Shown: piece by piece, positions 1-55,121 of the stretch
Layout: the number at the start of each line of letters is the position of its first letter
Numbering within the stretch: the first letter of the stretch is position 1
Origin: an uncultured bacterium
GTDB lineage: Bacteria > Omnitrophota > Omnitrophia > Omnitrophales > Abzuiibacteriaceae
Assembly (NCBI GenBank): GCA_964387845.1
Contig: CAYLXA010000010.1
Location: 1 to 64,000 of the forward strand
DNA length: 64,000 nt
Reading direction: 5' to 3'
Program-made: the position numbers and the translations under genes
Notes under the pieces: model-generated
What the model saw: the letters and a program-made list of their open reading frames with translations, nothing else
What the model was told of the DNA's origin: nothing
Databases searched by the model: none

Positions 1-76
1 ACACCGAAAGAAATGTTTCAATCACTCAGTGGTGCGCTTCCTGGTTGAATGTAGCCAGTGCAACTTTAAAGTTAAA

Positions 77-120
77 AGTTAAAAATTAAACGAAAGTAAG
101 CTATTGGTCAGTTTTTAACT
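77..120. terminator. Inverted repeat (9-bp stem AGTTAAAAA/TTTTTAACT, plus a 12-bp perfect palindrome AACTTTAAAGTT at 63..74) followed by a T-rich run. Likely a bidirectional terminator between an off-window plus gene and the minus lipoprotein gene.
   Basis: Stem complementarity read directly. T-rich tail TTAAATTTTGAGTTTTAT follows. Confidence 0.35.
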
Positions 121-134
121 TTAAATTTTGAGTT

Positions 135-1538
135 TTATATGGCGGAAGGGCCGGCAGCGTGAAAAAGTCCGTCGATATCCAGCTTCTTGCGGCGGAAGAG
201 TTCAAGGTCGGTTGAATTGAGGCTGGTAGAAGAAGAGGGCAGAAGAATGTTCACCAGTTCCAGATAATCAAAATCCTGGAATTGATAGCTTCGCATGACG
301 GTCACAAATTCATTTACGACGATATTGAACACATACAGAAAATCTTCATCGTTCATCCAATCTTCAATCAGCGCGGCCGGCACACCCGGTGACGCAGGTT
401 TAGGACGCATGCTGAACTCGAGCGAAAAATAGCTGCGCGCACCTTCTTCTTTTGCTTTTTGATAATTTAACTCGATTTTGTGTGCACTGATCGTATTAAA
501 GACACGTTCATCAATCGACAAAGCCGAATTGATGCGCCGCGTAATCTGCGTCGCTAAAAAATCACCCGTCTGGATGTCATCGACTTCGAATTCGGGTTTC
601 CATTCGCTTAAATTTTCATCGAGATTAAGCTCTTCGGGAAACGGGATTTTCTGCAGGATGCCGCTTGAATCCACAAAATTAAACGGGATGATCCTTGAAA
701 TTGCGTACTGTTCTGGCGTCTTCCCTTCAATGACAAAAATATATTCGACCGTGGAGCCGGAGGGATATAAAAATTCTCGCGGATTGGCTCCGGGTTTTAC
801 ATCATAAGTTTCTTTCACCTTCACATAAACGAGCGCCTCGCCGTCGGATGAAACCTGAGAGCGGAGGTCGAGAAAATCGAAATGAATGTTCGTTTTATTG
901 TCTGCTTCTAGGAGTGTCCGGTGGAAAAAGGGAGACAACGATTCGTTATCGATCTTGCGTGAGAAATTCTCAGGCAGGATTTGCTCAATCGGGTCTGTAC
1001 CGATTGCGTTAAATAAACGCTTCACCGGCCGTGACCAGACGACCGTGCGGTTAAGCCGGAGATCGTGTAAGACGCGTTTTCTGTATTCATTCCGCGAAAT
1101 ATCCCAAAGCCGGACGCGCTTGATATCCGAAACATTGCCGACCAGCACCATTTCAAGGCCGGTGTTTTCCGTGTCGGTTGCCTGCAGAACGTAAAAATCG
1201 ATTTTCTTGTCGGTGCTCAAAACGACCCGGGATGTCGTGAATAAAACATCTTCCACCTGCTCCATGGCTTCCGGTGACGGCTCGAGAAGCGATTCGATGT
1301 TCTGGACGTTGGCCAGCAAAGCTTCTTTCAGGTTTGTCGCAAATAATTTTCTCAAGGGCAGGAAAACGCCGATGGTGTTGCCGTTAAACTTCACCTGGAT
1401 GTTTTCGATTCCGTATTCTTTGCGGCAAATCTCGCGCAGTTCATCGACAATCCGGTTTTCAGGGTATGTTTGATGGCAGCCCGCGAGCGCCAATGCCAGC
1501 ACGATAACGATGAGTGATTTTGAAGTCATGTTTTTCAT
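135..1538 (-). CDS. Hypothetical lipoprotein (467 aa)
   Basis: N-terminal signal peptide with lipobox (LALALAGC). No recognisable catalytic motif. Confidence 0.5.
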   Translation of the reverse strand: MKNMTSKSLIVIVLALALAGCHQTYPENRIVDELREICRKEYGIENIQVKFNGNTIGVFLPLRKLFATNLKEALLANVQNIESLLEPSPEAMEQVEDVLFTTSRVVLSTDKKIDFYVLQATDTENTGLEMVLVGNVSDIKRVRLWDISRNEYRKRVLHDLRLNRTVVWSRPVKRLFNAIGTDPIEQILPENFSRKIDNESLSPFFHRTLLEADNKTNIHFDFLDLRSQVSSDGEALVYVKVKETYDVKPGANPREFLYPSGSTVEYIFVIEGKTPEQYAISRIIPFNFVDSSGILQKIPFPEELNLDENLSEWKPEFEVDDIQTGDFLATQITRRINSALSIDERVFNTISAHKIELNYQKAKEEGARSYFSLEFSMRPKPASPGVPAALIEDWMNDEDFLYVFNIVVNEFVTVMRSYQFQDFDYLELVNILLPSSSTSLNSTDLELFRRKKLDIDGLFHAAGPSAI

Positions 1539-1603
1539 ATAAAAGCAAAAACGCCTTCAGCGCTTAAACCTGTGCCGAAGACGTTTTGACTATCCGAGCA
1601 AAA

Positions 1604-3289
1604 TTATTTTTTGCTTTCTTCGGTTGCTTCCGCTCCGACTTTGCCGTTGCCGTCCGTTTTCGCATAGGAAAAGAGGCGCGGGTTCGGCTTTCCGTATTCG
1701 TTAAATATCGCTTCGATTTCGTCGTATTCCAATTCTTCGCGTGTCAATAATTCATGCGCAAACCGTTCGTAAATCGCTTTTTCTTTTGTCAAAAGCTGTT
1801 CGGTTTCTTTCAAACATTGCTGCATGATATCGCCCGTTTCCTTATTGAGCTGGTCCTTCATTTTTTCGGACATCTGGCTCTCGGGCACAACCGTGAAATC
1901 GCCAACCAAACCGGAATTGCCCATGCCGATTTTCCAGACCATTGCATGCGCAAGCGCCATGGCTTTCTCAAAATCGGACGAAACACCGTTAGAAGTTGAC
2001 CCGAATTTCAATTTTTCGCCCACATAGCCTGCAAGACAGACTTTAATATCCGCCAAAAGGGTTTCCTTGTCTTTCGTGAACCATTCCTCGCGCGGTGTCG
2101 GATGAACAACGCCTAGTGCGCTTTTTCGAGGAATGATGGACGCTTTAAACACGTCGCTGCGAGGATGGATCAAATAAGTGACGACGAGGTGACCGGCTTC
2201 GTGATGTGCTGTGATTTCTCGTTCGCGCGGCGTCATCTTAATTTTGTGTTTCACGCCGAGCTCAATGCGCTCAACAGCATCCGAAATTTCACGAAACGAA
2301 ACAACTTCTTTTCCCTTGCGCGTTGCAATGAGCGCGGCTTCTTTTACAATGTTCTCGATTTCGGCCGGTGATTTTCCGACGGCTTTGCGCGCAAGGCGCC
2401 GGCAATCGATGGAGCTTTCATGCTTCACTTTCTTCAAATAGTACTGGAATAGACCTTCGCGTTCGTCTAAACCGGGGCGCCCGATGTAAACTTTTCGGTC
2501 AAAACGACCGGGCCGCAGCAAAGCAGGATCCAGGGATTCTTCGGGCGCGTTCGTGGCACCGATCACAATCACATTTTCCGCTTCCGCGCCGAGGCCGTCC
2601 ATTTCGACGAGGATTTGATTTTGTGTTGAATTGGTTTCTGAATTTCCGAATTGATTGAACGTGCGGTTTTTGCCCATCGCGTCAAGTTCGTCGATGAAAA
2701 TAATGCAGCCGCCGAATCCGTATGCAAGCGAACGGGCTTTCTTGAAAAGTTTGCGGACACGCGAAGCGCCGACGCCGACGAAAATTTCGACAAATTCACT
2801 CGCCGCCATGGAAATAAACGGAAGACCGGCTTCCGTCGCAATGGCTTTCGCAAGATAAGTCTTGCCGCATCCCGGAGGTCCGAGCATCAAAATACCGCGC
2901 AGGATTTTCCCGCCGATTTTTTTGAGTTTGGCGTGGTCTTTGATGAGTTGAACAACTTCCCAAGCTTCTTCTTTGGCTTCTTCAATGCCGATCACGTCAC
3001 TGAACTTAACGTTGACCTCATCGCCCTTAATGGATTTCTTATCGACTTTGGCGAATCCACCGCGCATAACGCCCATGTACATATAAACGAAAATGAGCGC
3101 GTTTAAAGCCACCATTACCATTTGGATCGGCATGGTCGCAAGCGTGATATTGCGGTAATAAGATTCAAGAGACATCATTCCCCAAACTGCTAAAATCACC
3201 AGAACGATTCCGGCAAGAATAATCAGGATCGTCGTGCGGTAATTGAGGAAATGCATTTTCATGCGGCGGTAAAACCTGGATTGAGACAT
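1604..3289 (-). CDS. ftsH: FtsH-family ATP-dependent zinc metalloprotease with a short periplasmic loop
   Basis: Two N-terminal TM segments, Walker A GPPGCGKT, DELD Walker B, and a C-terminal HEAGH zinc-binding motif. Confidence 0.85.
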   Translation of the reverse strand: MSQSRFYRRMKMHFLNYRTTILIILAGIVLVILAVWGMMSLESYYRNITLATMPIQMVMVALNALIFVYMYMGVMRGGFAKVDKKSIKGDEVNVKFSDVIGIEEAKEEAWEVVQLIKDHAKLKKIGGKILRGILMLGPPGCGKTYLAKAIATEAGLPFISMAASEFVEIFVGVGASRVRKLFKKARSLAYGFGGCIIFIDELDAMGKNRTFNQFGNSETNSTQNQILVEMDGLGAEAENVIVIGATNAPEESLDPALLRPGRFDRKVYIGRPGLDEREGLFQYYLKKVKHESSIDCRRLARKAVGKSPAEIENIVKEAALIATRKGKEVVSFREISDAVERIELGVKHKIKMTPREREITAHHEAGHLVVTYLIHPRSDVFKASIIPRKSALGVVHPTPREEWFTKDKETLLADIKVCLAGYVGEKLKFGSTSNGVSSDFEKAMALAHAMVWKIGMGNSGLVGDFTVVPESQMSEKMKDQLNKETGDIMQQCLKETEQLLTKEKAIYERFAHELLTREELEYDEIEAIFNEYGKPNPRLFSYAKTDGNGKVGAEATEESKK

Positions 3290-3440
3290 CTGACACTCCT
3301 TAAAAACTGCTAATTGCTGTTATTGAACGATCAAAACAATACAATTATAACCTAAAAAGACACGTGAGATTAAACTATACCTGAGAATGGCAACGCTTGT
3401 CAAGCTGACGGATCAGATAAAAATTTCCATAAGTCATTTA

Positions 3441-3752
3441 TTAGTAATAGCTTATGTCATATTCCTCTTGGGAGCCCTCTTTATCCTCCGATTCATCCTT
3501 AACCCACTCCCACTTTTTCAAGGACGCTTCCTCTAATTGCTCAACCGGAGCTTTCACAAAAAATACGCCGGTATCATGCACCAACTTAAAAGTCGGTGCC
3601 GGAGCCCCAGGTTTTGGCTCATCTTTTAAAGTTTCTTCAGTTACCGGAACCGCTTTTGACTGGGTTTCCAAAATAGGGTCTCGAGATCCGAAGGCCCAAG
3701 CTAAATTTGAAATCATGCATAAAACGGCAAGAATCGGAAATAGTTTTACCAT
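3441..3752 (-). CDS. Small secreted hypothetical protein (103 aa)
   Basis: Signal peptide MVKLFPILAVLCMISNLAWA followed by an acidic C-terminus. Confidence 0.4.
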   Translation of the reverse strand: MVKLFPILAVLCMISNLAWAFGSRDPILETQSKAVPVTEETLKDEPKPGAPAPTFKLVHDTGVFFVKAPVEQLEEASLKKWEWVKDESEDKEGSQEEYDISYY

Positions 3753-3866
3753 CTTTTTATGAACCCTTTAAACCACATACCTAAAAGTTTACCACATGTT
3801 CTGTAGTCGTAAGTGGTAAGCTCATACGATTCACTTACCACTTAGCACTTAACACTTACAACTGTT

Positions 3867-6620
3867 TTATGCGAGATACTTCTTCAGAAACTGGCCCGTA
3901 TGGGAGCCGCTTGTTTTCATCAATCCTTCAACCGCGCCGCTGTAAACAATTTCGCCGCCCTTTTCGCCGCCTTCCGGCCCGAGATCGATCACATAATCGG
4001 CACATTTAATAATTTCCATGTTGTGTTCGATGACACAGATTGAATGGCCTTTTTTAAGAATCTTGTCAAAAGCCGACAGCAAAAGTTCGACGTCATGATA
4101 ATGAAGGCCGGTAGTCGGCTCATCAAACAAATAAAGCAGGTTGGAAGTCCCGTTATGGCTCATCTCCGCCGCCAGCTTGAGCCGCTGCGCTTCTCCGCTT
4201 GAAAGCGTGGTTGCGCTCTGCCCCAGCCGTAAATATCCCAAACCCATATCCACCAGGATCGAAAGCTTCTGCACAATGCGCTCTTCGGTAGAAAAAAACC
4301 GGACCGCTTCATCAATCGTGAGCTGCAGCACTTCATGAATATTTTTTCCGTGATAACGGATATCCAAAACATGATTTTGATAGCGCGTTCCTTGGCAAGA
4401 TTCACACGTGACAAAAACATCGGCCAAAAAATGCATTTCAACTTTTAAAAACCCGGCACCTTCACAGCGTTCGCAGCGCCCGCCGGGAACGTTGAATGAA
4501 AAAAGGCCGGCTTGAAGTTTTTTAGCCTTTGCGTCTTTGGTTTTCGCGAATGCGGCGCGGACATCATCAAAAACTTTGAGGTACGTCGCCGGATTGGAGC
4601 GCGGCGTGCGGCCGATCGGCGACTGGTCAATCAAAACCATATCGGAAATTAAATGGAATCCGTCCGTTTGCCTCGTTAAACCGACTTCGGAAATGGGTCG
4701 CCCGCGAAACCGTTCGTAATTGGCGTACAAAATATCATAGAGCAGTGTACTTTTCCCGGAACCCGAAACGCCGGTCAGCACCACCAGCCGGTGAAGCGGA
4801 ATTTTGAGCGAAATGTCCTTCAAATTGTGGTGCCGCGCGCCGCGGATCTCGATCCAGCCGTCGTGCTTGCCGTTTGTTTTGAGGTGTTCGCGCTCGATTT
4901 CGAATTCATGTTTAAAATATTTGGCAGTCAACGATTGGTTTGATTTTTTTAGCTCAGCAAAAGGCCCCGCGTAAATAATTTCACCGCCTTTTTCGCCGCC
5001 AAACGGCCCCAGGTCGATGATTTTGTCCGCCGCTTCGATCATCGAACGGTCGTGTTCGACAATCACGACCGTATTGCCGCGGTCGCGGAGTTCTTTCAGA
5101 AGCCGGATTAGCATATGATTATCGCGCTCATGAAGGCCGATGCTGGGCTCATCCAGCACGTAAAGCGTATCGACGAGTGCGGAACCCAAGGACGTGGCCA
5201 AATTAATCCGCTGAGCCTCGCCGCCCGAAAGTGTGCGTGAAGCGCGGTCGAGCGTCAGGTAACCCAAACCGACTTCGTCCAAAAAGCGGAGCCGGTTATT
5301 AATTTCGAGGAGAATCGGTTCTGCAATTTGGCTTTGCTGCTCATCCAATTTGAGCGTATGAAAGAAAGCCCTGCTTTTTTCAATCGTCATTTTGCTGACT
5401 TGTGAAATATTGAGCTCGGCAATTTTTACCAGCGTTGCTTCGGGCTTGAGACGAGCCCCCCGGCATTCACCGCACGGAAGGTAAGCGCGGTACTTGCTTA
5501 GAAAAACACGGACGTGCATTTTATAAACTTTTTTCTCGAGATATTTGAAGAAATCCTGAACGCTGAAATAATCACTCGTGCCGTCACCGTTTAAAATCCA
5601 ATTTTTTTGTTCTTCCGTGAGGTCGCGGTAGGGTTTATCGAGCGGGATTTTTTTGTGGCGGCAAAAATTCTTTAATTGGTCGAATTCGGATTTTGCACTT
5701 GGTTTTGTCCACGGTTCAATGGCGCCCTGCGCAATTGATTTTGAATCATCGGGAATGACCAAATTCCAGTCAATCGTAATTACGCGCCCAAAGCCCTGGC
5801 AGGCCGGACATGCGCCGAGCGGGTTGTTGAAAGAAAATAAATTCGGCGTCGGGCTTTTGTGCTCAATGTCGCAGGTTCCGCAGGCAAACCGGTTCGAGAA
5901 ACGGAGCGTTTCCTTGCCGGCCAAGATTTCAACCCTGCCCTTCCCATATCGGAAACCTGTTTCAAGAGCTTCAATAACGCGCGAATGATTGTCTGAATGA
6001 ATCTCCATTTCATCCGCCATAACGGACAACGGGGCTGCGACTTGTTCTAAAACATCAATCGCGGCTGTTTTCCCTTTTGACCTCGCTTTTAAAAACCCCT
6101 GCTTTTCATATTCGGCCAAAGCCGATTTCAGGAATTTCGCCGAATTTTCCGAAGTTTTAACGGGAAAAAGAATTTGGACATTTTCTCCAGAATAAGTTTG
6201 CGTAAGAAATTTTGAAATTGATTCGGGCGTATCAACGCTGACTAATTTACCGCACTTCGCGCAAAAAGTCTGGCCAATGCGTGCAAACAAGAGCCGCAAA
6301 TAATCGTTGATTTCGGTTTGGGTGCCGACCGTCGAGCGGGCATTGGTGACAATATTCTTTGCTTCAATTGCAATCGACGGCAAAATGCCTTCGATGAATT
6401 CGATGTCCGGTTTCTCCATGCGCTCTAAAAATTGACGCGCATAGGAAGAAAGCGATTCCACATAACGCCGCTGCCCTTCGGCATACAGAGTATCGAAAGC
6501 GAGAGACGACTTTCCGGAACCGCTCACGCCGGTCACAACAGTCAGTGTCCGGTAGGGAAAATCAATACTCAAATTTTTAAGATTGTGCGTTCTAACACCG
6601 CGTAAGGAGATAGCTTTCAT
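3867..6620 (-). CDS. uvrA: Excinuclease ABC subunit A
   Basis: Tandem ABC ATPase modules (GVSGSGKSSLAFDTLYAEGQRRYVESLSSYARQFL and a second GVSGSGKSTL), zinc-finger cysteine pairs, 917 aa. Confidence 0.95.
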   Translation of the reverse strand: MKAISLRGVRTHNLKNLSIDFPYRTLTVVTGVSGSGKSSLAFDTLYAEGQRRYVESLSSYARQFLERMEKPDIEFIEGILPSIAIEAKNIVTNARSTVGTQTEINDYLRLLFARIGQTFCAKCGKLVSVDTPESISKFLTQTYSGENVQILFPVKTSENSAKFLKSALAEYEKQGFLKARSKGKTAAIDVLEQVAAPLSVMADEMEIHSDNHSRVIEALETGFRYGKGRVEILAGKETLRFSNRFACGTCDIEHKSPTPNLFSFNNPLGACPACQGFGRVITIDWNLVIPDDSKSIAQGAIEPWTKPSAKSEFDQLKNFCRHKKIPLDKPYRDLTEEQKNWILNGDGTSDYFSVQDFFKYLEKKVYKMHVRVFLSKYRAYLPCGECRGARLKPEATLVKIAELNISQVSKMTIEKSRAFFHTLKLDEQQSQIAEPILLEINNRLRFLDEVGLGYLTLDRASRTLSGGEAQRINLATSLGSALVDTLYVLDEPSIGLHERDNHMLIRLLKELRDRGNTVVIVEHDRSMIEAADKIIDLGPFGGEKGGEIIYAGPFAELKKSNQSLTAKYFKHEFEIEREHLKTNGKHDGWIEIRGARHHNLKDISLKIPLHRLVVLTGVSGSGKSTLLYDILYANYERFRGRPISEVGLTRQTDGFHLISDMVLIDQSPIGRTPRSNPATYLKVFDDVRAAFAKTKDAKAKKLQAGLFSFNVPGGRCERCEGAGFLKVEMHFLADVFVTCESCQGTRYQNHVLDIRYHGKNIHEVLQLTIDEAVRFFSTEERIVQKLSILVDMGLGYLRLGQSATTLSSGEAQRLKLAAEMSHNGTSNLLYLFDEPTTGLHYHDVELLLSAFDKILKKGHSICVIEHNMEIIKCADYVIDLGPEGGEKGGEIVYSGAVEGLMKTSGSHTGQFLKKYLA

Positions 6621-17962: not shown

Positions 17963-19376
17963 GGTGATGCTGGGCTTTTTTAATTCTGGCCAGCTCCGGT
18001 TTTAAATTTTTCTTCCAACGGTTTAATTCGCTCTTCACCAGCGTCGGGTTCGGGCTTCCGTAGGTTTTTTTGTTAGCCACGGAAGTCTTCGCGTCAAAAA
18101 GATCAAAAACATCTTTTTTGAATTTCGGTGAAAATTTTTGATAAATTTTGAAATGAAGCCCGCTTAAACTCGTGTTTGAATCAATCGCATATTGCACAAG
18201 CTGGCCGACAATATCATGCGCATCACGGAATGCAACTTTCTGCCGGACCAAATATTCCAAAACATCGGTCGCATACAAAAAACTATCCTTCACGGCCTTC
18301 GCGCAAACATCCTGATTAATTTTGAGTGTTGATAAAACACCCGCCAACACTCCCAAAGATCCTTCCGCAATCCGGATGGAATCAAAAAGCGGCTTTTTAT
18401 CTTCCTGCATGTCGCGGTTATACGTCATCGGAAGCCCTTTCATCATCATTGAAACGGTGACAAAGTTTCCGCACGCAGCGGCGGCTTTGCCCCGAATCAG
18501 CTCCAGCATGTCCGGATTTTTCTTATGCGGCATGAGGCTGGAGCCCGTTGAAAACTCGTCCGAAAGCGTGACAAACCCGAATTCCGTTGTGGCCCATAAA
18601 ATCAAATCCTCAGAAAGCCGCGACAGGTGCGTCATCAAAACTGAAATCGCAGACAGCATTTCCAAAATATAATCCCGGTCGCTCACCGCATCCATGCTGT
18701 TGGAAGCCGGCTTTTTAAATCCGAGCAAACGAGCTGCAAACACTCGATCCAGCGGAAGGCTGCTTCCTGCGATCGCGCCTGAACCCAACGGGCTTTCATT
18801 CAACCGGTTTCGCAAATCTTCGAATCTGGATTTATCCCGCGCGAGCATATGAACGTAAGCAAGTAAATGATGCGGAATCGAAACTACCTGCGCTCGTTGC
18901 AAGTGCGTGTAGCCCGGAATCAAGGTCTTATCGTTTTTCTCGGCAAGCACAACCAGCGCCTGCTGCAGCTCAACGATTTTTTCGATCACATCGAGCGCTT
19001 TTTCTTTCGTATAAATTCTCGACGAAGTCGCCACCAAGTCATTCCGGGATCTTCCCGTGTGCAATTTTTTAGCCAGCGGGCCGATTTTTTTTGCAAGCGA
19101 GTCCTGAATGAGCGTATGCACATCTTCGACTTCGGCGCACATTTCGGGTGTCAGCGATTTGCGTTTAAATTCTGCCAAGACTTTCCAAAGCCCGCCTACG
19201 ATTTTTTTCGCATCCTGCTTCGAAATCAGGCCGATCTCGCCTAGCATCAGCGCGTGCGCCATGCTGACTTTGATGTCAGCGCCCAAAAGCTCGTGATCGA
19301 CTTCAAGCGAGTATGAAAACTGCTTTGCGGTTTCGTGAAGTTCTTTTTTGAACCGTCCGCCCCACAATTTTTTCAT
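17955..19376 (-). CDS. argH: Argininosuccinate lyase. The start is probably the internal MKKLWGGRF. The ORF-track N-extension overlaps argG.
   Basis: Fumarase/aspartase family signature GSSLMPHKKNPD. ATGA-type overlap with the argG stop. Confidence 0.9.
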   Translation of the reverse strand: MKKLWGGRFKKELHETAKQFSYSLEVDHELLGADIKVSMAHALMLGEIGLISKQDAKKIVGGLWKVLAEFKRKSLTPEMCAEVEDVHTLIQDSLAKKIGPLAKKLHTGRSRNDLVATSSRIYTKEKALDVIEKIVELQQALVVLAEKNDKTLIPGYTHLQRAQVVSIPHHLLAYVHMLARDKSRFEDLRNRLNESPLGSGAIAGSSLPLDRVFAARLLGFKKPASNSMDAVSDRDYILEMLSAISVLMTHLSRLSEDLILWATTEFGFVTLSDEFSTGSSLMPHKKNPDMLELIRGKAAAACGNFVTVSMMMKGLPMTYNRDMQEDKKPLFDSIRIAEGSLGVLAGVLSTLKINQDVCAKAVKDSFLYATDVLEYLVRQKVAFRDAHDIVGQLVQYAIDSNTSLSGLHFKIYQKFSPKFKKDVFDLFDAKTSVANKKTYGSPNPTLVKSELNRWKKNLKPELARIKKAQHHHA

Positions 19377-20563
19377 GCTTTTCTCCTGTACATGCCCTCG
19401 TAAGGCAAGCCCCAAATTTTCATAAACCCTTCCGCCGCACTTCTGTCAAAAGTGCTTTCTTTTGAATAGGTCGCCAGCTTTTCGGAATAAATCGAATAAG
19501 GCGACTTTCTTCCGGAGATCAAAACCTGTCCGGGAATTAATTTGAGTTTAATCGATCCGGTCACCCGTTTCTGTGGGCTTGCGAAGAACGCATCCAGAGC
19601 TTCCCGAAGCGGCGTAAACCATTGCCCGAAATAAATCATTTCGGAATATTTCTCTGACAAAACGCGCTTATAATGCGAAAATTCCCGATCAAGCACGAAA
19701 GATTCAAGCTCCTGATGAGCGGTCAAAAGCATCGTGGCGCCGGGCGCTTCGTAAATTTCCCGTGATTTAATGCCGACCAAACGATTCTCAATCTGGTCAA
19801 TCCGGCCGATTCCATATTTTCCGCCGACGGCATTCAGTTTCTCGATTAAATCCACCAAATTCATTTTCTTTCCGTTGATAGAAACCGGAATGCCGGATTG
19901 AAATCCTATTTCGACATAGGCCGGTTTTCTGGGCGCTTTCAAAGGCGACTGGGTCAAAATATAGGCATCTTCCGGCGGTTCTACGCACGGGTCTTCCAGT
20001 ATGCCGGCCTCAATCGCAGAACCCCAAATGTTCTTGTCTATGGAATACGGGCTCTTTTTTGTCACCGAAATTTTAATGTTATTTTCCTTCGCATAAGCGA
20101 TTTCTTCTTCGCGCGAATCAAATTCCCATTCCCGAAGCGGCGCAATAATTTTGAGTTTTGGATCGAGCGTTCTGACGCCGACTTCAATCCGGACTTGATC
20201 GTTGCCTTTTCCGGTACAGCCGTGAGCCACGTGCGTCGCTTTTTCCAAATGCGCAACCCGCACCAAATGTTTCGCAATCAGCGGCCGACCGAGGGATGTG
20301 GCCATCGGATATTGGCCTTCGTATCTGGCATGTGCCCAAAGCGCCGGAATTATAAAATCACGCGCAAATTCCTGCTTTAAATCCTGCACATAGACTTTGC
20401 TTGCGCCGGCAGATTTTGCTCTTTTTTGCAGCATGGATTTGTCCTTCACTTCGCCGATAAATGCCGAGAAGCACACAACTTCTGCGCCATACCGATCCTT
20501 AATCCACTTAACGGCGCAGGAAGTATCCAATCCGCCTGAATATGCCAGAATAACTTTATCCAT
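19373..20563 (-). CDS. argG: Argininosuccinate synthase
   Basis: AYSGGLDTS PP-loop, 396 aa. Confidence 0.9.
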   Translation of the reverse strand: MDKVILAYSGGLDTSCAVKWIKDRYGAEVVCFSAFIGEVKDKSMLQKRAKSAGASKVYVQDLKQEFARDFIIPALWAHARYEGQYPMATSLGRPLIAKHLVRVAHLEKATHVAHGCTGKGNDQVRIEVGVRTLDPKLKIIAPLREWEFDSREEEIAYAKENNIKISVTKKSPYSIDKNIWGSAIEAGILEDPCVEPPEDAYILTQSPLKAPRKPAYVEIGFQSGIPVSINGKKMNLVDLIEKLNAVGGKYGIGRIDQIENRLVGIKSREIYEAPGATMLLTAHQELESFVLDREFSHYKRVLSEKYSEMIYFGQWFTPLREALDAFFASPQKRVTGSIKLKLIPGQVLISGRKSPYSIYSEKLATYSKESTFDRSAAEGFMKIWGLPYEGMYRRKA

Positions 20564-33891: not shown

Positions 33892-36800
33892 TTAGGCCGC
33901 TGTTAATTGGGCCCAAGCTGCGCGAAGTTCAGAACGTAAAGATTCGGCGATTTGGTCGACGCCAAAGCGTGTGGTCAATTGATCGGGTGATTCCAGGCGA
34001 GATTCAAACTGAACATTTCGGAGTTCAGAGCGCAATTGATCCGCAAAATGCTCGTCTTTACCTTCCACACCATAAAGCACGAATTTAATATTATTTCCGG
34101 TGATTCCTTTGAGAACGGTTGTCGCATTTGTTCGTGTCACAATGTTCACAGAGTGGTTTGCATTATCATCTCTGAAGAAATGATTTTTCAAGAACGATGC
34201 CTGCATTTGTGTGCCGCCGAAGATAACAACAGGCCCTGATTTTCTCATGACCGTTGCTCCGGCATACGCAATCGGCAGATTTTCCAACATGCCCGGTGCG
34301 ACACCATAAACAATGATTGTTTGATTATCATCGGTTTCAATTGCTTCGCTTTGTCCAGCTGTTAAAGAAACTGCTTCTTGAATTGAAGAATGAGGCAAAG
34401 TCGCATACGCTTCTTCAAATTGATTCGCCGAATTTGCCGCCCGGCCCTTAATTTCCGGCGCAATAACACTTTCCCAAGTTAAAGATTCAAATGAAACGTC
34501 AGATATATTATTTTCCTGATTTATAACGCGTAACTCGGACGAAGGCGGGATTACCAGCTTCGCCAAAGCAGCGCTTTTCGGGTCAGAAAAGCGCAATTTC
34601 GATCGACTTGAACGCCTCCTTTTTTCGCGACTAACACCTGTCTCTGTCTTTAAACGGCGCTGATGGCCACCTCTCGGAAAAACTTTTTTATTATAGGTGG
34701 GCGGCTCTTTTGTCCTAGAAAGTTTTCTATCTGGCCTTGGCTTGCCGCGATGGCTAAGCGCTCCGTAGTTTTGCCAATCATCAAGAACTCCGACTTTCGA
34801 ACCGCGGCGTCCTTGCACAAATTTGTAAATATTGCCCTTGCCATCAATATAAACAAATCTCAAGTCCCATCCATTTATAACTCTATAAACACGATCTGGA
34901 AGGCCATCTCCATCCAATTCAATCAATCTCCATTTGTGCCGGCTGTTTTCCTGAACATATACTTCAATTCTGCCAAATATTTGATGATTAAAATGATGGT
35001 AACCAATCGCTTTAAGCGGCTCCCATTGTCCATATTCATCAGGCTGATTATTCTTGACCCAAACTTCATCTGCAAAGAATTTTTCCCGCAAATTGACAAG
35101 CCTCAGATTTCCTGTGAAACCTGATTCAATAGTGCGATTGGTTTGATAGGCAGCCTGGGCAATCCATGCCATAATTACCTTTGCAATTTTTTGTTTGGAC
35201 CATTTATGATAGTAGTTAGCTGAGAAATTATCGAATGGCTTGAATTGACTTGTGATCAGTTTGTTTGAATCGAGATAAAAGCCTACAGAACCTGTACTTT
35301 CATATCCGTAACCCTCATCAAAACCGACTAGAATTTGATAATTTTGTCTACCTGCGCGAACAATCTGCAACAATACCGGATCTCGCGGAGAATAAGGATT
35401 ATTTAGTTTAACGGTATATGTTTTCCATTTTGGATTATCAAAATTTGGAATAAAATCTGCGTTCGACTTCGCGCGCAATTCGGACTTTGCGTCATCGGGA
35501 CGCGAATGATTGGCCATAGGTGCTTTTTCTACAATTTTATTATCACTATTTTCTATATTGACAGGGCCCCGTTTATTTGATATAAGAAAGTCCTCTTCGC
35601 GCACAAACTGAAAAGGAGAATTAAGAATGGTAGAACGTGAATTCACCGCAAGAGAAGTCGGTGCGCTTGTTGAATCTTTCCGGAATGACATTTCCGCCAT
35701 TGCAGAAGGCGTTAGCGGGTTGGCTGTCCGAATGGATCGGGTAGAAGCCAGACTCGCAGTGGTAGAGGTTAAATTAACGTCTGTTGAAGACGCTGTTCGC
35801 GTGGCGGTTCCCAACCACGAATCCCGCATCACCAAACTAGAATCCAAAGTTTTCGGCCGCTGATTATCTTTGCGCAGCTCGGACTTCAGAGAGGCGATTC
35901 CAAAAAACAATGCCTGGCCCTGTTCATTTTTAATTGTTTTCATCACTTGCAGACCACCATCAATAAACTTTTGAAAAATGGTTTCTGGCATTCGATGGTC
36001 TGCCCTGATTCGGCCCGTTGGACTATCCCAAGCTCCCTCAAGCTGATTATAAAAAGTTGTGGCAAAAATTCCTTTTGGTTTAAGAATACGCCTAATGCTT
36101 CGCGCGGCCCGGCTGGCCCGCTCAGTAGACCAGATTTCGATTCCAGGCTTCAATTGAAGAATGGGCATCCCCTCTTCCCTGACATAATCCCACACTGCTT
36201 CATCATCTAAATTACGGTAATGTTGCTTTGTTTCAGCGTGATTGGTAATCAATGCCCAATATAAAACCGAAGAAGCAATGATTAAATCAAATTGCTGGTC
36301 AGCAAATTGACTTAAATCCAAAATATCTGCCTGAACCGCACTCGCCCCGAACCGTTCTTTCGCAAATTGAACCGCATTCTCGTCGATATCAGCCACAATA
36401 ACATCAGCCCCTTTTTGCCGAAGCCATTCAAGGATACTTCCGTCTCTGGCAGTTCCAATTTCAAGCACCCGCTTGCCTTTCCAATAATCCTTTTTCAAAC
36501 TGTCGATTTCTCTCAATCCATGCAAAATGAGTGGTGCTGTACCGCTAGAAATCATTACATCTTCTTCGCCGCGCAGCTCGGCTCTGGCTTTCCGATTAAT
36601 ATCTGACCCGGGCACTTCATTGTGAGCCGGAGCGGACTTCGCGGCGCCTTGGTTCTCTTGCAAATCAATCGATGACATGAAAATATCCCGCCGCGATGTG
36701 ACATAGCCGGCAACATGCATGGTAGACCCTTCGACCGAAAGAGCGAGCGGCAAGTAGTCTTTGGGAAAGTGAAGCAGGCCATTTTCAAATTGCGTTTGAT

Positions 36801-39800
36801 CAATTTGATTTGAGCGGCGGTCAAGTGCAACAATCGCTGAGCCCACTTCAGGATCTTCCCTATTTAACCGATGTGGTGCAACATGCAGGTATGCGGTATT
36901 TCCAAAAATAGAGTTCGGCCAATCTTGCGTAAAAAGTTGATAGGGTTTTTGATTGATCGTCACTTCTCCTAATAAATTGCCCGCTTGATAAACAAGCTCT
37001 CCTGTCTTGATATCCACAACACCTATACCGCTCAAAGGCGCATGCGAATCAAGAATTAAATGATCCTGATTCGAGCGTAAATATCTCACATATTGAAATA
37101 ATTTCGCATTACGTTCATAAACACCTTCTTTTAGTTTGTCAGTACGCAAATGACCGCTGACAGGATCCAAGGCATAAACTTTAGAGGAGCCCAATCCTGT
37201 GAAAAATAAAACGCCTTGAGTGAAGGTGATAAGCGGCGTTGAAACTATTTCATCGGGAAATACTTGCTTCAAATCGAGAACGCCTTTTTCAAATTTGGCA
37301 TGATCTGGCTTTCCGTCACTCATCCGAAACGCGTGAATATAAGCCTGGCCTTTCCGGGCTCTGTCATCAACCGGATGGACATCTGTCTTTCGATAATAAG
37401 CAGCATACAAAGTTTGTCCATCTTCGCTCACGGCCAACGAGTTAATCCGTGCTTCCGGGTCAATCTTTTTAACCTCGTCCGACAAATTTAAACGTCCGTT
37501 CGACCACTTTTCAGACATTAATGCTTTGCGATCTAAATCAACTGCTAAAATGTCACCCGTGAACGAAGTCAAAATGTAAGCCGCATTTCCTCTGGCCACC
37601 ATTTCACGAGGCATGTCCTGAGACGAGATATGAAAGAATCTCTCATTATTTTGCCGCAACTCGGAGCGGGTTTCGGGCTTCGCTTCCATTAGTTTTTTAA
37701 TTTGAGCGCGTGCTTCTGCAATCATTTGATCCGTAATTTCACCCTGCTCTTTGCCGAGCGCCCCCAAGATTTTCGAATCTAAATTGCTTTTTTGGCTGAG
37801 TTCTAAACTGTCATAACCGATGTCTTTTTTCAATTGAACGATCTTTTTATAATTAGAAAAGGTGCGAAGAAAATTAACAACCGGATCCAGCGAGACATGC
37901 TGCCCATCGTCAGTTGCATAAGATCCCAGCAAATCCAGAGTGGTTGTTGCAATCATCAATTCAATTGCCTGGTTAAATTGATCTTCGCCGCGGATGCCTG
38001 CCTGCTCAAATTCCTGCCTTAATTTCTCCAATTGTTGAGCACGATGAATCGAAAACGCAAAAATGTGATGTTTAATGATTAATTTCAAAAGCGCATTGCT
38101 TGAAACGTCCATTTCACCGAAGTGAATATGATTGTCACTTAACACGCGAAATGATTCGAGTTCATGGCCCGGAAATGAATGGTCTCCATTCTCTTTGAAC
38201 TGCATTTTGGTTTTCTTGCCGATATCATGAAGCACGATAAATGCTTCCAATATCGCGCGGTCTTTTGCATTCCAATCCTTAATCAGATTGATCGCATCTT
38301 TGGGCGCTGTAGTGTTTCGGTCAATTTGATTGAGTGCCGAGAGAATGGCTTGTAAATGGTCCTGAAGTTTAGCATTCTGGCCGCCTTCCCTATGAAACAG
38401 GCTGTGATAATGAGGCGTTTCCAAAAAATCCGCATATTGATCCGGAATGCCAGATAACTGTTTCACCAATTCATCCAATGCTGAAGCCGGCCCATACTGG
38501 CGCAGCTCGGAGCGCTGTTCTTTTATCCATTGCACCAAACGCCGATAGTCAGTAACGCGAAGCGACATGCGGGAATTTCCGGGATTCGGCGCTATGATAA
38601 ACTGGTCGGCGGTTCCTCGAACCTTTTGGTACACAAAGACGAGAAACATACCGTAAAACCCCTGTGATTCCGGAAGGCCCCGGGCAACCCAATCCGCTTC
38701 AAGAATTGACCTGAGGACATTTGCCTTGATGGTCAACTCGTCCGGTTCCTTGTTTGCATCTAATTGTGCGATGACGGATTGAAAATATTGCAGAACTACC
38801 GCGTTTCTCCGTTGACTTTGAAGATCATTCCCCAATCCTTCAAAAAGTTTTTGCGTAAAGCGCTGCGCATTACCCATTTGATTTAAATCACGGACCAATG
38901 CCCGATATTCGCGCCGGTAAGCAAGCCATTCGTCTTCCAAATGCATATCAACGGAGCGCACAACCTTCTTAAATGCTTCCGGACTTGTTATCAATGGCTC
39001 CATGTCTGATTTGCCATGCAATTGCTTAACAAAATCAATCAGATATTTCATGCCCTCATCTGCTTCTCTGGCCAATGCGGCATTGATCAAGTGCGTACCT
39101 TCATGGATCATGACATATTTAATAATCAGAGGTGGAAAATGAAGCGCGAAGTCACGATTGATAGTCACATGAGTCACGCTTCCGTCTAATGAAGTTTTTA
39201 TACGTGCATACGAATGCCTCTGCAAAGAGCTTAATAAAGTGTCATCGAGAACGGGATTTTTTTTAAATGCCTCGATAAATTTTAATGCTGTTTTTTGATC
39301 GTCTAGGTTTGAAATTTCGGAAGCAATTTTTTCAAGGCGGTCCACAACCGCTTGAATTTCAGGGAGAAATTCGGGAGTTCTGATCCACCGCAAGATAGGC
39401 CATGCAGCAAATAAAGCGGTTGTTCCTGCACCGATTATTATTTGCCTGCGGCTTGGCAGCCAAAATTTCTTAGCAGGCTCTTCGCTTTTTACTCCCTGAC
39501 GCCGCTCCTTATTTTTTCGTCCGTTCTCACTTGCGCGCAGCTCGGCGCGGGAATTTCCGCTTGGAAGCTTGATGTTAAATTCTGCGGCTGCGTGGGCCAG
39601 CGCACGGTCGCGGTGCTCTCCATACATCAAAGCTTCCCGATGATTGTTTAGGCCTTTTTTCTTCCGAATTCGCTTTGCTTTATGCACAGAAGCCCTGGTT
39701 GAGTACTTCAAAGAAAGCGGCGCTGCCGGAAGCTGAATGCCGAACCGTTTCGCAGCATTGTAAAGCGCCCTGTCCCGATGCTTGCCTCGGGTTAACTCGC

Positions 39801-46333: not shown

Positions 46334-46600
46334 TTATCTGAAATCTTTATACTTATCATTCAGCGTTTTTTGGATATCTTTTACCTGCGCTTTTGCCTGC
46401 TCGCCCAACCCAATTTGGGTCTGAGTATAACCGCCGGTTAATTGATCAAACAGGCCTTGTGAGGCGGCCTGCTTTCCCTGCTTCGGATGTTTTTGTTCCT
46501 TCTTCCCGATCCACTGGTCTAAGTAGCCCATTTTCCCCGCGATTAAGAACATAATGATAATCAGCGCAATTAAAAGATTGATTAAATTGAACCCTTTTTC
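46334..46600 (-). CDS. Small single-pass membrane protein (88 aa) with a prepilin-like N-terminus lacking Glu5 (MKNEKGFNLINLLIALIIIMFLI). The ORF-track N-extension to 46798 is spurious.
   Basis: The start is set at MKNEKG. The longer call overlaps the upstream membrane-protein gene in another frame. Confidence 0.45.
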   Translation of the reverse strand, partial: EKGFNLINLLIALIIIMFLIAGKMGYLDQWIGKKEQKHPKQGKQAASQGLFDQLTGGYTQTQIGLGEQAKAQVKDIQKTLNDKYKDFR

Positions 46601-46620
46601 GTTTTTCATGATGTCTCCTT

Positions 46621-54741: not shown

Positions 54742-54772
54742 AGGGGTAAGGATTAAGGGGTAAGGGATAAGC
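54742..54772. repeat. Terminal inverted repeat (right) of the four-helix-bundle insertion: AGGGGTAAGGATTAAGG..., abutting the leuB start codon
   Basis: A 16-17-nt core is the exact reverse complement of 55173..55189. Confidence 0.5.
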
Positions 54773-55121
54773 TTTTGCGAAGTCCGGAAAGCATTCTTCC
54801 GATTTCGTTACAGTAGTTAATAAGCATTTCATAATGTTCATGATCAACATAATTTAAATCCCTGCTTAAAAGTAATAAATATTTGGTTTCTTCAAGTGAA
54901 GAATTCGACAAATTCAGAAAATGCAAATAATCTTTTGTACTTTTTCGTTTTTGTCCTTCTACAATGTTTGTGGCAATCGAAACTGTGCTTCTTCGTATTT
55001 GAGAAATAATTCCAAATTTTTCATCATTTGGAAAACGTTTCGTTAACTTATAAATTTCTAAAATTAAAGTGTGAGATTTTTGCCAAACTTTTAAATCTTG
55101 AAATGTTTCTATCCTATACAT
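54753..55121 (-). CDS. Four-helix-bundle protein (TIGR02436-like family, the type often found in 23S rRNA intervening sequences)
   Basis: Characteristic ...DLKVWQKSH...L...[26 protein letters not shown] pattern. The last residues are encoded by the flanking repeat. Confidence 0.75.

Follow-up and report, generated by a model that had tools for sequence, protein, structure and literature searches.

How do three segments built like twin-arginine translocation (Tat) signals come to lie deep inside a single reading frame? The question is raised by a 64,000-nucleotide stretch of DNA from an uncultured bacterium of the Omnitrophota (hereafter the window; contig CAYLXA010000010.1, positions 1 to 64,000). 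One giant open reading frame (ORF) on its minus strand (33892..46236), with a TTG start and AGGA 9 nt upstream, encodes 4114 amino acids (aa), and the product is a putative polyprotein of about 16 modules. The answer that we favor, and to which we would give an even chance, is that interior, envelope-bound modules of this polyprotein bear Tat-type leaders that would be unmasked by cutting at a recurrent motif, R-[SA]-E-x-R.

The three twin-arginine segments

Each of the three segments combined a basic n-region, an S/T-R-R triplet and 19-20 uncharged residues. In segment 1 (aa 125-152, DLSRRTVIKYGLGLTVSGSLIAGTIYAV, then RKSFKQNK; 45781..45864, minus strand; peptide DLSRRTVIKYGLGL...), a Tat-like leader of module 2, the twin arginine (RR) lies at aa 128-129. 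Segment 2 (aa 1009-1036, KLTRRDFLFGFAAIGLAAVGVTIWIKNK; 43129..43212, minus strand; peptide KLTRRDFLFGF...) has RR at aa 1012-1013, and segment 3 (aa 2260-2285, LPSRRQIIIGAGTTALFAAWPILRWI; 39382..39459, minus strand; peptide LPSRRQIIIGAG...), a Tat-like leader of module 9, has it at aa 2263-2264. A sequence-only reading had noticed all three and placed them near aa 125, 1085 and 2265; the first and last positions were right, whereas the second was about 75 residues off. It had also put HExxH motifs 50-60 residues beyond two of the segments, and the measured distance from RR was instead 65 residues to HELTH (segment 2) and 115 residues to HEGTH (segment 3).

The combination itself was not random. 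In the giant protein [ST]RR occurs only five times and an uncharged hydrophobic 20-mer only six times; three of these coincide, and even one such coincidence arose in only 6 of 2000 residue shuffles. Dipeptide counts over the whole protein were 26 for RR, 21 for RK, 15 for KR and 20 for KK; because RR is not markedly commoner overall than the other basic pairs, its presence beside all three cores is not a composition effect.

In all three segments S/T-R-R-x was followed by two hydrophobic residues (SRRTVIK, TRRDFLF, SRRQIII), with the consensus K in segment 1 only, and basic residues followed the core (RKSFKQNK after segment 1, KNK after segment 2, RWIR after segment 3). The cores of segments 1 (YGLGLTVSGSLIAGTIYAV) and 3 (IIIGAGTTALFAAWPILRW) were rich in Gly, Ala, Ser and Thr (fraction 0.50-0.56). 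Crude insertion sums on the Hessa scale were +3.8 for segment 1 and +4.6 for segment 3, compared with about -1.0 for segment 2 and -0.5 for the strongly hydrophobic helix that precedes it (aa 974-997; 43246..43317, minus strand), the first transmembrane (TM) helix of a hairpin, which is also a helix in the structure model. By these sums segments 1 and 3 appear too weakly hydrophobic for a stable helix inserted through Sec, the general secretory pathway. Both show the low-hydrophobicity, Gly/Thr-rich h-region and the basic c-region of a Tat signal, and segment 2, which is as hydrophobic as a Sec-inserted helix, does not.

Position separated the segments in the same way. Segment 1 begins 18 residues after the motif KSELR and segment 3 begins 29 residues after RAELR, whereas segment 2 lies 97 residues into module 6, behind a helical N-domain and the TM helix at aa 974-997. 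It forms the second helix of the hairpin after a loop of charge +7, and is followed by PTAVA|M. The proposal that each segment opens a module therefore holds for the first and third and fails for the second, as does the Tat layout proposed for all three, which the composition of segments 1 and 3 bears out. On this sequence evidence we distinguish two kinds of segment, Tat-like module leaders (1 and 3) and a TM helix of a hairpin (2). The earlier interpretation was thus partly supported: its outline is correct for segments 1 and 3 and mistaken for segment 2.

None of the segments stands at the N-terminus of the primary product (RR at aa 128, 1012 and 2263), in which they differ from ordinary Tat signals. 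The sequence-only reading had treated an N-terminal position as normally the only one for such signals. This is too strong, as internal Tat signals are documented in membrane proteins targeted by both Sec and Tat, such as the Streptomyces coelicolor Rieske protein Sco2149 and Sco3746 (PMC5449189, PMC3471235). The Tat-dependent helix of the Sco2149 type has low hydrophobicity, C-terminal positive charges and a spacing of at least about 8 residues from the preceding helix to RR (PMC5449189). Segment 2 resembles this arrangement in that its RR would lie in the cytoplasmic loop that links a Sec-type TM helix to the last TM helix, beyond which comes a folded metal-binding domain; at about 14 residues this loop is longer than the minimum, and KNK follows the segment. 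It differs in hydrophobicity, its sum of about -1.0 standing against positive values for Tat-dependent helices, and in its passenger, a putative zinc peptidase with no sequence relationship to the redox-cofactor domains of that type. It is segments 1 and 3 that show the signature of low hydrophobicity with C-terminal charge. The helix at aa 974-997 and segment 2 would together be a stable hairpin that anchors the peptidase with RR in the cytoplasmic loop, and this RR may be only a positive-inside determinant or may be a tethered Tat signal of the Sco2149 kind.

The junction motif and the modules it bounds

The motif ahead of segments 1 and 3 recurs throughout the giant. Seventeen ELR sites were found, 15 of them in the form [RKS][SA]ELR, and the motif count was 18 against 0.86 expected (about 20-fold); in the other reading frames and genes of the window the motif was absent beyond single chance matches. 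The instances that bear on the three segments are KSELR at aa 106-110 (45907..45921, minus strand), the proposed cut site exposing segment 1; RSELR at aa 911-915 (43492..43506, minus strand), the start boundary of module 6; and RAELR at aa 2230-2234 (39535..39549, minus strand), the proposed cut site exposing segment 3. The motif divides the ORF into units mostly of 120-860 residues, nine of them of 170-376, plus a few short spacers.

The consensus was [RK]-[SA]-E-L-R in the window ORF and R-[SA]-E-[VLAM]-R across the family, where a logo of 172 instances from 11 giants gave R(136)-[S96/A59]-E-[V71 L52 A28 M12]-R(154). Enrichment over shuffled sequence was 5-20-fold in each of the 11 giants and at least 8-fold in 10 of them, and the variants ELR, EVR, EAR and EMR were specific to lineages. 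Three relatives without the motif repeat other short peptides (KPGSSDME, [SA]GFG, S[ST]SG), which may serve as junction motifs there. The motif lay 3-28 residues after the conserved domain of module 2 in 14 of the 20 copies detected, and therefore marks domain ends. This bore out the idea of a modular ORF with RSELR-type motifs at its module boundaries.

At the nucleotide level the codons for R, S/A, L and R varied freely among synonyms, and GGAG occurred within 1 of 15, 0 of 20 and 0 of 10 motif instances. For these two reasons we rejected a signal acting in the RNA, or one of Shine-Dalgarno type, that would serve internal initiation or pausing; the motif is a peptide-level signal, most simply read as a protease recognition site. 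A literature search on the motif strings and on polyproteins in Omnitrophota found no description of the motif. Double junctions were seen in P0008 and in the giant at locus L002 (5642-17968): RSEVH, about 18 Pro/Ser/Thr-rich residues, then RAEVR (for example RRSEVHPNRLDSGTPPSSPERARAEVR). They recur many times nearly verbatim, as though a spacer were excised.

The units between the motifs are several independently folding, unrelated proteins in a single ORF, with separate homologues and domains among the modules, and the short site recurs at their junctions. Module 2 (aa 111-486; 44779..45906, minus strand) consists of its leader and a conserved all-alpha domain (predicted local distance difference test score, pLDDT, 89.7) with the pattern IDWLIxxGYPxPxVL ... 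REAWG ... ExxE ... W, and ends at RSELR. A Foldseek search of the PDB with this domain gave no match.

Module 6 (aa 916-1251; 42484..43491, minus strand) comprises a helical N-domain, the TM hairpin and a predicted minigluzincin-like HExxH peptidase, and also ends at RSELR; its zinc-binding motif HELTH lies at aa 1077-1081 (42994..43008, minus strand). The closest known proteins are minigluzincins and M48/M56 membrane metallopeptidases (selecase 4qhf, proabylysin 4jiu, BlaR1), and the predicted model is of only moderate confidence (pLDDT 73.9). At the sequence level there was no match to Pfam M48 or M56, and in the profile scan the region of segment 2 also matched PF10399. The module would be a putative minigluzincin/M48-M56-like zinc peptidase anchored by the hairpin; a third zinc ligand was not found in the model. 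Module 9 (aa 2235-2579; 38500..39534, minus strand) joins its leader to an orphan HExxH domain (HEGTH at aa 2378-2382; 39091..39105, minus strand) and again ends at RSELR. A word-indexed homology search found no homologues of module 9, a weak null given that a search of the same type with the module-2 profile returned nothing, although an exhaustive HMMER search finds the module-2 relatives. That modules 6 and 9 are paralogues was rejected (hhalign probability 0.5%).

Two further modules carry enzymes of cytoplasmic type, a weak HD-domain match in module 10 (aa 2657-2726; 38059..38268, minus strand) and an S-adenosylmethionine (SAM)-dependent methyltransferase domain in module 12 (aa 3253-3397; 36046..36480, minus strand). 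Repeats were seen at two levels. An internal duplication joins aa 567-656 with aa 3505-3588 (window 44269-44538 and 35473-35724; 41% identical over 93 residues), both copies holding ...NI[KE]NSDNKIV[KE]KAP... and ending at an [AK][AS]ELR motif. Module 8 (aa 2116-2234; window 39535-39891) has two copies of a short unit, ...GKHRDRALYNAAKRFGIQLP..., that is also repeated several times in an unrelated giant (P0008, aa 2093-2422).

Relatives, their leaders and the gene neighborhood

An exhaustive HMMER search with aa 111-1251 as query found 22 proteins, and pattern scans of genome and metagenome contigs returned one locus each. The module-2 domain was found in 13 further proteins, each 2000-7000 residues long, in which its position ranges from 130 to 4060, and most giants with this domain have a comparable junction motif. 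The syntenic orthologue P0002 (3275 aa), from a genome whose LeuC is 92% identical, shares with the window ORF only aa 72-486 (79%) and aa 3909-4114 (66%), the latter within the C-terminal modules (aa 3904-4114; 33892..34527, minus strand; end ...RSELRAAWAQLTAA), and the middle is entirely different. Because the ends are conserved while the middle is replaced and the modules are shuffled, the family is a mosaic of exchangeable modules. Module 6 has free-standing homologues of 339-477 residues (P0013, P0015, P0017, P0019, P0021), in which the hairpin arrangement is also kept.

A hydrophobic leader precedes the module-2 domain in eight lineages. Comparison of the arginine pairs among homologues, which the sequence-only reading had proposed as a check, showed RR in five of these eight leaders (SRR in P0001, P0002, P0009 and P0014; RRQFLF in P0016) and before the second helix in five of six module-6 hairpins, the window ORF included (TRR, TRR, SRR, GRR, NRR). 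Segment 1 differs from its counterpart in the orthologue P0002 only by changes that preserve hydrophobicity. Motif, leader and domain stay together as a unit in P0001, P0009, P0014 and P0016, which are only 21-30% identical, and leaders within about 35 residues after a motif were found in P0001 (twice), P0002, P0008 (twice), P0009 (twice), P0012, P0016 and P0023. A lipoprotein-type signal is meaningful only at an N-terminus; in P0008 one (KQGETVLLLGLLAGMIGGIG|C) lies 5 residues after RSEAR.

We compared the N-terminal signals of 10 giants with 9 internal leaders that follow a motif. The N-terminal signals were K-rich and strongly hydrophobic, like that of the window ORF, a Sec-type signal peptide or anchor with a K-rich n-region and no RR (MKQYLKITAILIIFCFSIQNTIG; 46162..46236, minus strand). 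Maximum 12-residue hydropathy was 2.2-2.9 for the N-terminal signals and 1.6-2.6 for the internal leaders (p 0.002), and the Gly/Ala/Ser/Thr fraction 0.25-0.44 compared with 0.31-0.69 (p 0.003). RR occurred in none of the 10 N-terminal signals, whereas 4 of the 9 internal leaders had it (p 0.03). Judged by composition, this is the classical Sec-versus-Tat contrast. A TatC gene (PF00902, 208 bits) lies at 18726-19460 (minus strand) of locus L002, 750 nt downstream of a related giant of 4108 aa; no TatA-like ORF was seen near it in that locus, and a literature search on Tat in Omnitrophota found nothing relevant.

Other features of the giants were observed at their ends. After the signal peptide, P0006, P0008-P0012, P0016, P0023 and the L002 giant have a conserved domain of about 450 residues (..IQDAH..EGA..GGFHTxGL..) that is absent from the window ORF. 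It gave a weak ChaN/Tiki match (PF04187, E 0.058) in one of six members and no PDB profile match, and could perhaps be a TraB/Tiki-type protease. At the other end nearly all complete giants finish in -A, mostly -AA (window ORF 33892-33930, P0002-P0018, the L002 giant), as in LTAA, EAAA, RTAA, GMAA, ASAA, LIAA, AIAA, SRSA, SYSA and SHNA, an end like those recognized by SsrA-type or tail-specific proteases. The syntenic locus, L003, holds a second giant gene (1-3091, running off the locus; 4159 aa product) about 7 kb upstream of the orthologous giant, with no counterpart at that position in the window.

The neighbors of the giant are ordinary chromosomal genes (leuC, leuD, a GT4 glycosyltransferase, AsmA, DUF819, an enzyme of the enolase superfamily, ABC transporter parts, arg genes, uvrA and ftsH). 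LeuC is 79-83% identical to proteins that bear the names Candidatus Omnitrophica or Omnitrophota, which assigns the window to an Omnitrophota chromosome. Its 4114 codons run for 12.3 kb without any stop, and an independent Logan contig encodes an identical product, called there as one gene. These facts and the syntenic orthologue ruled out several genes or an assembly artefact. A phage origin was likewise ruled out, the sole PHROG match being a generic methyltransferase and the neighbors housekeeping genes. The G+C content of the ORF (window 34000-46000) was 0.41-0.45, compared with 0.46-0.49 in the flanking genes. Directly upstream of the giant is a small gene (window 46334-46609, minus strand) with a pilin-like N-terminus (MKNEKGFNLINLLIALIIIMF...), kept at the same place in the syntenic locus (L003 9472-9723; 83 aa, weak N_methyl match). 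Another small gene, with 23S_rRNA_IVP / bAvd family matches, lies between ThiG and isopropylmalate dehydrogenase (window ~54750-55120; L001 1116-1484).

Proposed sorting of the modules

On the reading that we favor, the giant would be translated as one chain of about 16 unrelated, protein-sized modules joined by the short motif; the chain would be cut at the motif, and each module would then be sorted separately. The cut would leave modules 2 and 9 each opening with a leader: a basic n-region, then S-R-R, then a core of low hydrophobicity rich in Gly, Ala, Ser and Thr, with basic residues behind it. These leaders would act as Tat-type signals or signal-anchors for passage to or across the cytoplasmic membrane after folding. 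A Sec signal would be usable only at the true N-terminus of the chain, where the giants have one. An interior module would gain a free N-terminus only once made and probably folded, which would explain why interior signals are of the twin-arginine kind. The modules hold proteins of different sorts (the SAM methyltransferase, the weak HD match, membrane peptidases), and by our reasoning no single-chain topology would place all of them sensibly.

Viral polyproteins are likewise single ORFs for many proteins, cut by 3C-like or similar proteases at a short junction motif. The giants resemble them in having a short, lineage-specific motif at the junctions of many functional proteins in one ORF. They differ in that the window giant is a chromosomal bacterial gene, flanked by leuCD, DUF819 and an ABC transporter, and no viral-type protease was recognized in the ORF and no phage genes nearby.

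Several observations weigh against this polyprotein reading. No cleavage product, protease or export was observed; we infer cleavage, the cutting enzyme, the compartment of cutting and Tat dependence from sequence comparison of about 14 giants, a small sample that comes from metagenome assemblies. No segment reached the thresholds of the curated Tat hidden Markov models: segment 2 scored 18.4 bits against 22.7 for PF10518 and 14.8 against 16.7 for TIGR01409, and segments 1 and 3 gave no match to either. The hydrophobicity values are crude Hessa-scale sums and do not come from a trained predictor. Three of the eight module-2 leaders have single or spaced arginines in place of RR, and a leader is missing altogether from about half of the copies of the module-2 domain, which makes the signal facultative. 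Hydrophobic leaders after motifs are only modestly enriched (6.1% compared with 2.6% of windows). No Tat gene turned up in the 64-kb window, in L001 or in L003, a negative with little bearing on the genome as a whole, of which only about 64 kb was available.

The alternative that survives best is one that we take seriously while doubting it, namely that the whole giant is exported by Sec and that its modules are released outside by a surface or periplasmic protease, or serve as an effector cocktail for prey or host. MARTX (multifunctional-autoprocessing repeats-in-toxin) toxins offer a precedent, with several thousand residues, conserved ends and a mosaic of exchanged enzyme modules released by cuts at short inter-module sites. 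The giants share with these mosaic effector toxins the size, the conserved ends and the unrelated, quickly replaced middle modules. They differ in their site, a five-residue R-[SA]-E-x-R where MARTX toxins have a single Leu, and in their N-terminus, a Sec-type signal where MARTX toxins have a type 1 secretion signal; Pfam and NCBIfam scans of the giant ORF found no repeats-in-toxin (RTX) repeats and no C80 cysteine protease domain. With Sec export, the hairpin (aa 974-1036) would be the sole membrane anchor and all other modules would lie outside, an order (signal peptide, periplasmic, TM, +7 loop inside, TM, periplasmic) that is in full agreement with the positive-inside rule. The hydrophobicity of segments 1 and 3 would be too weak for them to halt translocation, and they would not be Tat signals in the producer, though they could act in a recipient. 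Nearly all giants begin with a signal peptide followed by a conserved domain. Free-standing module-6 homologues bear an N-terminal signal of their own that the polyprotein copy is without, a difference that also counts against cutting followed by separate sorting and fits Sec threading of the whole giant at least as well. Omnitrophota have been proposed to be predatory or parasitic, and their giants are predicted to be mostly extracellular (10.1101/2023.11.21.568195; PMC10066038). However, Sec export leaves the conserved S/T-R-R and the split between Sec-like and Tat-like signals unexplained in the producer. It puts the SAM methyltransferase and the weak HD domain outside the producer, so that a delivery step, itself unobserved, is needed, and the apparent helix-turn-helix and sigma-factor-like modules of relatives (read by eye, without a profile match) would pose it again. 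In P0008, moreover, the lipoprotein signal that follows a motif would need an N-terminus on the cytoplasmic side.

It is unlikely, in our judgment, that the leaders are functionless relics, captured together with free-standing genes. Fast module turnover, the existence of free-standing homologues and the half of module-2 copies that lost a leader or never had one agree with such an origin. The motif-leader-domain unit is nevertheless kept at 21-30% identity, segment 1 has changed from the orthologue solely in ways that preserve hydrophobicity, and leaders in the giants always sit just after the motif. Weakest, and in our view very improbable, is an uncleaved multi-pass membrane protein in which RR supplies positive-inside residues and the ELR motif is for interaction or is a structural linker. 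In its favor, many TM helices have been reported in Omnitrophota giants, the helix at aa 974-997 and segment 2 are both true TM helices around a strongly basic loop, and no protease was identified. Against it, five spanning segments would force the +7 loop and the methyltransferase and HD modules outside, segments 1 and 3 are poor TM helices on the crude insertion scale (+3.8, +4.6), a five-residue motif enriched about 20-fold with lineage variants at domain ends is unlike a passive linker, and the lipoprotein signal after a motif in P0008 is not accommodated.

Returning to a polyprotein with leaders unmasked by cutting, giant ORFs of 10,000-85,000+ residues ('Archaeovorin' and dockerin types, with SecA-like, C39 or S8 domains) have been described in Omnitrophota, where cleavage was suspected and the cleavage points were stated as unknown (10.1101/2023.11.21.568195). 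The window giant belongs to the same phylum and shares the very long ORF, signal peptide, TM helices and suspected post-translational cleavage. The family with the motif differs in its size of 2000-7000 residues and its clear recurrent junction motif, and the profile scan found no SecA-like, C39 or S8 domain in the window ORF. The lineage-specific motif thus provides concrete candidate cleavage sites for giants where none was known (10.1101/2023.11.21.568195), and a rule for cutting giant ORFs in silico ahead of structure or function prediction.

Should cutting be confirmed, signals with no activity inside the chain that become N-terminal afterwards would be a new use of the Tat pathway, and would account for Tat-like leaders in the interior beside a Sec-like true N-terminus. 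We advance more tentatively the general proposal that in bacteria of this kind, the Omnitrophota genome of the window and those with related giants, chromosomal polyproteins are a regular mode of expression, with a lineage-specific junction motif cut by a dedicated putative protease, modules sorted singly, Tat used after cutting and cassettes exchanged fast. If true, bacteria would have an equivalent of the viral use of polyproteins, coupled to Tat targeting after cleavage. That the middle modules have turned over rapidly between two genomes with 92% LeuC identity points to a system of cassettes under diversifying pressure, and this bears on the predatory or parasitic way of life proposed for these ultra-small bacteria.

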